IMG/VR virus record: IMGVR_UViG_2541047501_000021
Coordinates: 1 to 10,764 of that record
DNA from: a virus
Lineage: Duplodnaviria > Heunggongvirae > Uroviricota > Caudoviricetes
Length of the DNA stretch: 10,764 nucleotides
Reading direction: 5' to 3' (one strand)
The position numbers and the translations under genes were made by a program. Of the stretch, positions 1,347-2,438 are shown in pieces (within the stretch, counting starts at the first letter, position 1; every line of letters begins with the position of its first letter). A model generated the notes under the pieces. That model saw only the letters and a program-made list of their open reading frames with translations, made no database searches and had not been told where the DNA came from.

Positions 1347-2438
1347 TCACCCCCTGAATCCCGGCGGAATTTCGGTATCCGGTTCAGAAATATGATTCAC
1401 ACAACGCTGGTTGTTCGTGCCGCTTACCGGGAGCAACCAGGGGTTTTCAAAATTCCGGTCCGGCCCAAAAAACGTCGTCGCTCGCTGAACAAATTCCGTT
1501 CCCGCTTTCCCGGTCGCCGCCAGGTATCTCGCGTAACGCCTCACACCATCCAGCATGGTCTCTGGTGGCACCCCCTCGCGCAATCTGGCCTTCCAGGCAC
1601 TGAAAGCGGATTTCTTCGGGTTTGCCCCAGCACGCAACGGGTATTCCCGCCAGACCTGTTCGAACACATCCGGATAATCCACTCGTCCCACAGACTGCCC
1701 GGTGCTTTCCGGGACTACCCGATCGGCTTCCCGCTGAATGGCGGAATCGGCTTCAGGCTGCTGCAGTTGGTGTGATTGCTCCGACCCTGCGGTCATCACC
1801 TGCTGCACAGCGCCCGAATCGGCTTCCGGTGTCGTGCCTGCTGGCTGACCAGGATTGACGGTCTGAACATCCCCTGCCTGGTTCGTGGTGTTTTTTTTGC
1901 CATGAACCATAGTGTTTTTGTCCTGTTCCTGTTCTTTCTCCTGCTCCTGTTCCTGTTCTTGGCTTCGAAGCCCCTTAAAAGCCCCTTCGAAGCCCCTTAC
2001 CGAATTTCGGCTATTATTCCGCCTCACATCCAGATGGAAATCCGTTTTATATCTGTCGTAAAACACTGACAGAAAAGCGTTTTCAGGTAATGATGCATAC
2101 TCATTCCTGACACCTGCACAACGGTTATCGCCAGGCTTCAACGTTTCCCCAACCTGCCAGGCTGCCATTTCATGGACCCAGACCATCTCTGCATCATGGT
2201 CATAGCTACAAAAACCAGCTTCAACAGCCCTTTTAAGCCCCTTTGAAGCCCCTTCCAGACCAAGCCCGGTTTCATGAGCAAGGTATAAAACTGGCAGGTA
2301 ATACAAACCCAGCATATTTGCGTGAGGGGATGTCATCAGGTAAAAAGCAACAACTTGCGCTTCTGCACCCGCCTTTCTAAGTTCTCTCCCCGTTTCTCCC
2401 AGCCAGAATCGCGGAGAAACTTTTGCGTAATCACGCAT
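1347..2438 (-). CDS. Phage replication initiation protein (O-like / replisome organiser) with (QE)n low-complexity linker and internal iteron-like repeats
   Basis: Long ORF directly upstream of and operon-coupled to the DnaC-like gene. Preferred start is the ATG at 2438-2436 with GAGG 5 nt upstream (complement of 2444-2447); the track start at 2549 has no ribosome-binding site. The coding DNA contains the QEQEQEQEKEQEQ linker and five 11-bp-phased AAGCCCCTT repeats. Confidence 0.65.
   Translation of the reverse strand: MRDYAKVSPRFWLGETGRELRKAGAEAQVVAFYLMTSPHANMLGLYYLPVLYLAHETGLGLEGASKGLKRAVEAGFCSYDHDAEMVWVHEMAAWQVGETLKPGDNRCAGVRNEYASLPENAFLSVFYDRYKTDFHLDVRRNNSRNSVRGFEGAFKGLRSQEQEQEQEKEQEQDKNTMVHGKKNTTNQAGDVQTVNPGQPAGTTPEADSGAVQQVMTAGSEQSHQLQQPEADSAIQREADRVVPESTGQSVGRVDYPDVFEQVWREYPLRAGANPKKSAFSAWKARLREGVPPETMLDGVRRYARYLAATGKAGTEFVQRATTFFGPDRNFENPWLLPVSGTNNQRCVNHISEPDTEIPPGFRG
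1968..1998. repeat. Iteron-like direct repeats, 3 copies of AAGCCCCTT at 11-bp spacing (candidate origin iterons inside the O-like gene)
   Basis: Copies at 1968-1976, 1979-1987 and 1990-1998; the 11-bp phasing is about one helical turn. Confidence 0.5.
2235..2254. repeat. Second cluster of the same iteron-like repeat, 2 copies of AAGCCCCTT at 11-bp spacing
   Basis: Copies at 2235-2243 and 2246-2254, about 240 bp from the first cluster, with a degenerate AGCCCTTTT copy just upstream. Confidence 0.45.

Follow-up and report, generated by a model that had tools for sequence, protein, structure and literature searches.

Among the lactococcal temperate phages, there are some with repeats inside the rep gene. 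The origin of phage lambda is located in the middle of gene O and consists of four to six iterons and an AT-rich tract needed for unwinding; the lambda O variants of Shiga toxin (Stx) phages have six iterons, and iteron number varies between relatives, thereby altering protein length (PMC7466680). In the case of plasmid pSK41, the N-terminal domain of RepA binds Rep boxes in the central part of rep, and the middle segment of the protein, which is encoded by the origin, is a dispensable linker (PMC5703833). The low-affinity DnaA boxes of Escherichia coli oriC are 9-mers 2 base pairs (bp) apart in two clusters (PMC6070618); according to the title of Rozgaja et al. 2011 as cited in PMC6070618, such arrays are oppositely oriented and guide progressive initiator binding. 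Here, we analyzed the virus record IMGVR_UViG_2541047501_000021, positions 1 to 10,764, a stretch of 10,764 bp from an E. coli O157-type, lambdoid/Rac-like prophage, which is called the window in the following and whose numbering is used throughout. Its gene for a putative replication initiator of 363 amino acids (aa) contains two arrays, A and B, of a 9-mer repeated every 11 bp. We consider it probable, if some way from certain, that these arrays are iterons bound by the N-terminal winged helix of the protein encoded by the same gene, and that they form the core of an in-gene prophage replication origin, comparable to those in lambda O and pSK41 repA. The comparison with relatives strongly supports the reading as iterons; from it, we infer the N-terminal domain as binder, the arrays as origin, and the mode of opening.

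In its logic, the arrangement comes closest to lambda O and ori-lambda, as the candidate origin lies inside the initiator gene, with array B between the DNA-binding part and the loader-recruiting part and array A within the coding region of the DNA-binding domain. Also, initiator and loader genes are adjacent and located downstream of the immunity switch, and modules are exchanged between phages at the joint. In contrast to lambda, asymmetric 9-bp cores recur every 11 bp, form two arrays at a distance of 267 bp, and lack a clear AT-rich flank, and the downstream partner is a DnaC/IstB-type AAA+ protein and not a P-type loader. The initial annotation had called the gene O-like, which is appropriate with respect to position and inferred role but not to homology: no Pfam family matched the 363-aa protein at E ≤ 0.1, Phage_rep_O (PF04492) included, and the protein falls outside the lambda O family. 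The proposal that the lambda logic of iterons in the initiator gene applies here with a different iteron holds as far as sequence comparison goes, for a protein that is no lambda O homologue. Initiators of the pSK41 RepA_N type differ from the window's system by the Gram-negative phage setting and the missing RepA_N Pfam match of the latter, by its second array within the coding sequence of the DNA-binding domain itself, and by its DnaC-like loader as partner instead of a primase. With the oriC arrays, it shares 9-mers with 2-bp gaps in two clusters, which are opposed in most family members; unlike oriC, it has a winged-helix initiator without AAA+ domain, which is not DnaA, and the window's arrays point in the same direction. 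Altogether, the features of iteron origins that are visible in sequence were found at this locus: direct repeats in helical register inside the initiator gene, conservation as DNA, and a site co-varying with the DNA-binding domain.

Repeat arrays in the window

The 9-mer AAGCCCCTT occurs exactly five times in the window, always on the plus strand (1968, 1979, 1990, 2235, and 2246) and with 11-bp spacing within each of the two groups. Shuffled controls preserving the dinucleotide composition contained 0.09 copies on average, and none of the 200 shuffles reached five. When one mismatch was allowed, six copies were counted versus 2.9 expected, and the excess was gone; therefore, the signal consists of exact, phased copies. 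The repeat unit is a 9-bp core within 11 bp (consensus TCGAAGCCCCT), so that adjacent 9-mers are 2 bp apart. Independently, Tandem Repeats Finder detected repeats of period 11 at 1968-1999 and 2228-2254 and of period 6 at 1921-1958. Five phased copies next to a CT-rich tract encoding (QE)n had already been described in the initial annotation, and the coordinates given there were right to within a few bases. Both groups are located within a block of 42 nucleotides (nt) that is duplicated at 79% identity (1962-2003 and 2218-2259); the two groups lie 267 nt apart, whereby the reading frame is kept. Array A sits in the DNA encoding the peptide LEGASKGL of the predicted recognition helix H3 (aa 60-73, encoded by 2220-2261). 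The coordinates of all elements are listed in Table 1.

Table 1. Coordinates of the repeat arrays, the putative initiator gene with its parts, and the adjacent loader gene in the window
Feature	Position	Strand	Remarks
Array A	2224..2254	+	Two exact AAGCCCCTT (2235, 2246) and a degenerate third copy ACAGCCCTT (2224-2232), 11-bp register
Array B	1968..1998	+	Three exact AAGCCCCTT, 11-bp register; DNA of the disordered linker, aa 147-157, peptide GFEGAFKGL
Spacer between arrays, 236 bp	1999..2234	unstranded	Weak unwinding-site candidate
Junction palindrome GGCTTCGAAG	1961..1970	unstranded	Inverted repeat spanning the Ser159 codon AGC (1962-1964)
(CARGAR)n hexamer tract	1921..1961	-	1923-1961 encodes QEQEQEQEKEQEQ, residues 160-172
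Initiator ('replisome organiser') gene, 363 aa	1347..2438	-	N-terminal winged helix, disordered Q/E-rich linker, C-terminal domain with DnaT-like tail
N-terminal winged-helix domain coding region, aa 1-143	2010..2438	-	
C-terminal module	1347..1918	-	91-92% nucleotide identity with phages having another N-terminal domain
DnaC-like AAA+ helicase-loader gene	594..1340	-	Begins 7 nt past the initiator stop codon

Conservation of the repeats at the DNA level

Relatives of the initiator gene were gathered from annotated phages, 80 viral contigs, and 79 genomes of different species. The latter 79 loci originate from gamma- and beta-proteobacteria and beyond, with protein identities of 29-81%, mostly 45-81%. 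In nearly all relatives, copies of the 9-mer are located at gene nt 185/196 and, as a second group, at about nt 430-463; the initial 600 nt of the gene contain 6.9 copies per kb versus 0.31 per kb in the flanks.

For a codon test, conserved residues were compared in 72 coding sequences with G+C contents of 39-68%. Within the motif copies and at the junction beside array B, E62 is encoded by GAA in 100% of the sequences, G63 by GGG in 95%, A64 by GCT in 91%, K66 by AAG in 100%, G67 by GGG in 91%, L68 by CTT in 90%, K155 by AAG in 100%, and S159 by AGC in 100%; the latter codon is used in all 64 of the 64 homologues having serine at this position, though serine has six codons. At 25 other conserved sites with fourfold or sixfold degeneracy, the share of the top codon was 28-78%. 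The difference between motif codons and other conserved sites (Mann-Whitney p = 7e-6) holds in both the low-GC and the high-GC subset. Other invariant glycines track the G+C content of the genome, whereas G63 and G67 remain GGG in both subsets. Unusual fixation was also seen for two codons not covered by exact motif copies, namely R2 (2432-2434; CGT in 78%) and E73 (2220-2222; GAA in 94%). E73 adjoins the degenerate third copy of array A, while fixation of the R2 codon may reflect a constraint on translation initiation.

Nearly all homologues have array B, which invariably keeps register with a downstream AGC-CAA-GAR. Its orientation on the coding strand differs: among the 72 sequences, it is purely inverted (C-type) in 45, purely window-like (G-type) in eight, and mixed in the rest. 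Inversion turns the peptide EGASKGL into APSKPL, APSEPL, or APPKPL and leaves the 9-mer and the 11-bp register unchanged. In Acinetobacter prophages and phage YMC/09/02/B1251, three to four phased copies are located in intergenic DNA directly upstream of the ATG, and one of these copies, AAGGAGCTT, also serves as Shine-Dalgarno sequence. Such upstream copies were seen at nt -40 to -1 in five loci (L101, L114, L116, L117, and L123) and at 2037-2056 in locus L004. Since the motif and the synonymous sites under it are fixed while peptide and coding status vary, selection acts on the DNA itself.

More distant relatives carry other sites. A subfamily of about 30% identity (L162-L167) has another 11-bp repeat, CGAAAGGGTTT, of the form CGAAA(GGG/CCC)TTT, in the same two places, and its H3 contains KGF for KGL. 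In relatives of 41-46% identity (L158-L160), array A is absent and 11-bp phased repeats are retained at array B. Altogether, the comparison shows that the repeats are under DNA-level selection independent of the peptide, are co-inherited with the N-terminal domain, and change when this domain changes.

Incidental codon repetition resulting from an internal protein repeat (EGASKGL twice) would give two arrays that are in frame at a distance of 267 nt and encode similar peptides, as is the case in the window. This explanation is refuted by the comparison, and the probability that we leave to it is negligible: synonymous sites are fixed across 39-68% G+C, most species have another peptide at array B but the same DNA motif, an 11-bp period cannot come from codon periodicity, and non-coding copies exist. 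For such repetition, the initial annotation had expected repeats that are lost from relatives while the protein is kept; the opposite was observed, as the repeats are kept where the peptide changes and occur also in non-coding DNA.

The orientation of array B bears on a second explanation, namely a long-range structure. In most family members, array B is the reverse complement of array A, and the two could pair with each other within the mRNA or within single strands of unwound DNA, for example as a hairpin of the primosome-assembly type or as a translational regulator. For the C-type locus L096, the minimum-free-energy RNA fold indeed pairs A with B (z = -5.7), and the DnaT-like tail of the initiator protein described below would fit a role in primosome assembly. 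However, the arrays of the window, and those of Enterobacterales relatives with G-type array B, share one orientation and form no A-B pair; also, mixed-orientation arrays exist, and the non-coding upstream copies of Acinetobacter are without a pairing partner. In 43 C-type loci, 57 of the 66 deviating positions break the putative pair and only three are compensated on both sides, while spacer bases pair at about the chance rate (38/86). We therefore regard a function as paired structure as very unlikely.

The distance between the arrays is 243-291 bp in all but one relative, with 267 bp in the window. Measured from the second copy of array A to the last copy of array B, it is 243, 255, 267, or 291 nt in 52 of 55 loci. 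These values are all congruent to 3 mod 12, i.e., the length changes in 12-nt steps, though steps of any multiple of 3 nt would suffice to stay in frame; helical phasing may be the reason, or merely a few ancestral insertions and deletions. In locus L155, a metagenome-assembled genome (MAG) of the Acidobacteriota, array B has grown to about eight phased copies (gene nt 470-547), and therefore copy number can differ widely. A Burkholderiales MAG (L144, 1-310) carries five plus four phased copies with the usual inter-array spacing about 1.2-1.5 kb upstream of the initiator gene, which are probably a piece of a second tandem gene copy with a longer array.

The position of the Acinetobacter copies over the ribosome-binding site suggests autoregulation. 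The arrays could serve solely as autoregulatory operator or roadblock that throttles the initiator-loader operon, bound by the initiator or another regulator, with the true origin elsewhere. Besides the overlap of the phased Acinetobacter copies with the ribosome-binding site and the promoter-proximal region, the lack of a clear AT-rich unwinding element by the arrays is in line with this explanation, and it is established knowledge that iteron plasmids often reuse initiator sites as operators (PMC5703833). On the other hand, Tandem Repeats Finder detected no other phased repeat array adjoining the replication genes in the window, and the site is placed at the joint of N- and C-terminal domain, which is where the lambda and pSK41 origins lie. 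Operator and origin roles are compatible, and given the Acinetobacter upstream copies, an operator function is probably an additional role of the sites. That they serve autoregulation alone could still be the case and counts against the origin proposal, and we judge it unlikely.

The QE tract and module exchange

In most family members, the QE tract directly follows array B. Its length is 6-22 residues between species and 2-20 residues among close relatives, and its synonymous positions drift with genome G+C. Distant relatives swap it for (KE)n, (PE)n, or (SE/TD)n, which keep the alternating glutamate and not the DNA pattern; for this reason, a polypurine DNA element was rejected as main explanation of the tract. 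It is probably an acidic flexible protein linker derived from slippage-prone hexamers and a joint for module exchange, and not a DNA element. In the initial annotation, the (QE)n tract had been counted towards the candidate origin; this is not supported, as the tract behaves like an acidic linker at the protein level. The first codons of the tract, AGC CAA GA, are near-invariant and continue the iteron register; therefore, the DNA element may also take in a few bases of the tract.

DNA shared with other phages at 92% identity ends at about position 1918, right after the QE tract (seven phage records with unrelated 5' halves). One of the phages concerned, Escherichia phage Tritos, has the window's C-terminal domain at 92% with a different N-terminal domain. 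At the equivalent joint (2100-2182 of the Tritos locus), five CGTGAC(A) repeats phased by about 10 bp and a 12-nt repeat tract encoding (DKDT)n are present. The layout of phased short repeats plus acidic low-complexity tract recurs in this second initiator family. Accordingly, the window's protein and the Tritos 'replisome organiser' have in common an N-terminal DNA-binding domain, phased repeats in the linker DNA, an acidic low-complexity tract, and a C-terminal domain. The Tritos system differs by its N-terminal domain and its repeat (CGTGACA, about 10-bp phasing), and has no second array in the coding region of a recognition helix. Within the family studied here, N-terminal domain and arrays are joined to varied C-terminal domains, and the partners comprise DnaC-like loaders, primase-helicases, and other genes.

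These observations raise the question whether motif and hexamer tract are just 'linker' DNA, i.e., a recombination joint for shuffling of N- and C-terminal modules, with no binding role. The mosaic break directly after the QE tract, the low-complexity tract at the equivalent joint of Tritos, and the near-invariant AGC-CAA-GAR junction would all be expected of such a joint. It leaves unexplained array A, located 267 bp away inside the N-terminal domain, the 11-bp register, the flips of array B, the non-coding copies, and the change of the motif with the N-terminal domain subfamily. We give this explanation very little credence, and facilitated module exchange is more likely a by-product.

Two clusters of 11-bp direct repeats also resemble centromeres of the parC type. 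The parC site of plasmid R1 consists of 11-bp direct repeats bound by ParR. A role in partition, or as target of another DNA-binding protein, would be compatible with the ParB-family gene found three genes downstream in one Klebsiella relative. However, the annotation of the O157 prophage matching window positions 1-6870 at 98.7% identity contains no partition genes, none was found among ten further open reading frames of the window that were scanned, and none is present in most relatives. Moreover, the repeat site travels with the N-terminal domain of the initiator and not with any other gene, which makes this explanation highly improbable.

The initiator protein

The N-terminal domain of the protein was modelled confidently as a winged helix, and its closest structural relatives among replication proteins are a plasmid initiator of the RepA_N type and proteins of the DnaD/DnaB type. 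In the linker (aa 144-158), the predicted local distance difference test score is < 50. A Foldseek search against the PDB returned weak generic winged-helix matches only, and a sequence search of the PDB with the family profile gave no match at E ≤ 1. Over its full length, the protein matches PHROG 1701 ('DnaD-like helicase loader', E 9e-149), while its C-terminal half is matched by several 'replication initiation protein' PHROGs; RefSeq labels for the gene read 'hypothetical protein' or 'DNA-binding protein'. The last 24 residues (aa 340-363; 1350-1421) resemble the tail of DnaT (NCBIfam DnaT, E 0.0019, 17.8 bits versus a cut-off of 201), on which the 'primosomal protein I' labels in phage records probably rest.

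The adjacent loader gene (594-1340) is matched by Pfam IstB_IS21 (E 1.4e-18), by PHROG 50 ('DnaC-like helicase loader'), and by NCBIfam PRK12377 with 506 bits; its DnaC match (E 4.6e-88) is under the cut-off of that model.

Clustered at 50% identity, the initiator family amounts to 4,084 clusters. The first replication gene of Shigella phage 75/02 Stx, which represents the 'Eru4' type (L002), is homologous to the window's gene, with an N-terminal domain about 80% identical and the same arrays, and is followed by a DnaC-like gene; array B is inverted (C-type) there, unlike in the window. This homologue has been listed under 'unknown function' in a paper stating that nothing is known on the replication proteins of Eru phages (PMC8951638). 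The replication-region descriptions of Eru1-3 were considered as well and showed no correspondence to the window's gene, in contrast to Eru4. The best reading of these data is that the initiator belongs to a new, uncharacterised large family without Pfam model, which includes a Shiga-toxin phage type.

Assessment of the candidate origin and possible mechanism

We take the arrays to be iterons, i.e., cognate sites, because they are conserved, fixed in their codons, flipping in orientation, present also in non-coding DNA, co-varying with the DNA-binding domain, and inherited in a modular way. Several observations weigh against an origin at this site. No marked AT-rich unwinding element was detected beside the arrays by composition, family-wide GC profile, or nearest-neighbour stability. 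The least stable 30-mers in 1840-2500 have about -36 kcal/mol versus a window mean of -39.9 ± 3.7, which corresponds to about one standard deviation. An AT-rich segment at 1880-1920 (37-40% G+C) belongs to the C-terminal module, which is exchangeable, and lacks conservation across the family, where G+C past the QE tract exceeds the gene mean by 0.03. Family-wide, G+C dips only between the arrays, at about 2024-2109 in the window (35-37.5% at 2040-2099), with a family mean of -0.135 at 60-90 nt upstream of the S159 codon; this dip is explicable by the amino-acid composition there. As a further difference from oriC, the window contains no DnaA boxes.

Also, a search for plasmids or phage-plasmids relying on the module alone yielded none, the ten hits being prophages in chromosomes, large plasmids, and mis-assigned contigs. 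A 32-kb Klebsiella 'plasmid' considered as a case with this module as sole replicon was rejected, as it is a linear chromosomal fragment with a partial prophage. In the literature search, no experimental report of binding or origin activity was found for the motif or the family; no relevant paper was retrieved for the 9-mer, and zero papers for the 18-mer double-motif strings. Finally, the prophage looks degraded, with truncated exonuclease and integrase genes in the window and an insertion sequence beside the module in the 98.7%-identical relative, and therefore the window's own copy may have stopped firing.

If the arrays act as iterons, initiator monomers would bind successive 9-mers 2 bp apart, about one helical turn from each other, and short head-to-tail oligomers would form on one face of the DNA at each array. 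The two arrays, at their distance of 267 bp, may then be bridged, whereby the 236-bp spacer would be distorted, and opening could be aided by read-through transcription of the initiator gene. The C-terminal domain with its DnaT-like tail would recruit the DnaC-like loader, which is encoded directly downstream, and the host DnaB. Binding within the gene, and over the ribosome-binding site in the Acinetobacter relatives, would probably also lead to negative autoregulation.

A more far-reaching proposal concerns array A, whose AAG GGG CTT (K-G-L) would both encode a part of H3 and be the target of H3. Initiator and origin would then form a self-referential pair with one 9-mer fixed from Acinetobacter to Burkholderiales, and array A, together with the second and usually opposed array, would nucleate opening without a classical AT-rich element. 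We regard this as possible but doubtful, and put it forward tentatively. With helix H3 and its site in the same DNA, a change in specificity would alter both at once, as in KGL/AAGGGGCTT versus KGF/AAAGGGTTT of the distant subfamily.

Genomic context

Used as a 661-bp query, positions 1900-2560 matched chromosomes of O157:H7 and O103:H2 with 100% identity, and 477 of the 5,426 complete E. coli genomes contained this segment. The matching O157 prophage differs from the window in the right part (6871-10764). Upstream of the initiator gene, a cI-like repressor gene and YdaS/YdaT-like genes are located. Divergent from the initiator gene, an ECs1072-family gene was found at 2517-2972 (+). The immunity region contains a YdaT-like gene (3179-3604, -), a YdaS-like gene (3588-3860, -), and a cI-like helix-turn-helix gene (3969-4370, +), and is adjoined by a RelB/RelE toxin-antitoxin pair at 4398-4876. 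The right part carries a truncated Exonuc_VIII gene (7232-8476), a truncated integrase gene (8458-9009), a DinI-like gene (9082-9429), and two genes for NleG type-III effectors on the minus strand (9591-10232 and 10314-10748); 6871-10764 looks like a degraded prophage end with effector cargo.

A scan of 500-4500 for promoters and terminators gave counts at chance level. A terminator-like hairpin (TGGTTC...GAACCA followed by a T-run) was noted at 1879-1919 on the plus strand, antisense to the initiator gene and at the mosaic joint past the QE tract; terminator-like sites in this region are no commoner than expected by chance.

Conclusions

The repeats are a clear case from nature in which a DNA element prevails over codon choice and even over the encoded peptide. 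In addition, array A may be a target that itself encodes the DNA-binding helix recognizing it. For a very large group of prophage replication genes without Pfam model, including those of 'Eru4' Shiga-toxin phages, the two arrays give a concrete candidate origin and initiator-site pair. As the level of phage replication affects Stx production, knowing the origin and its binder would open a route to study or block the replication of such phages.

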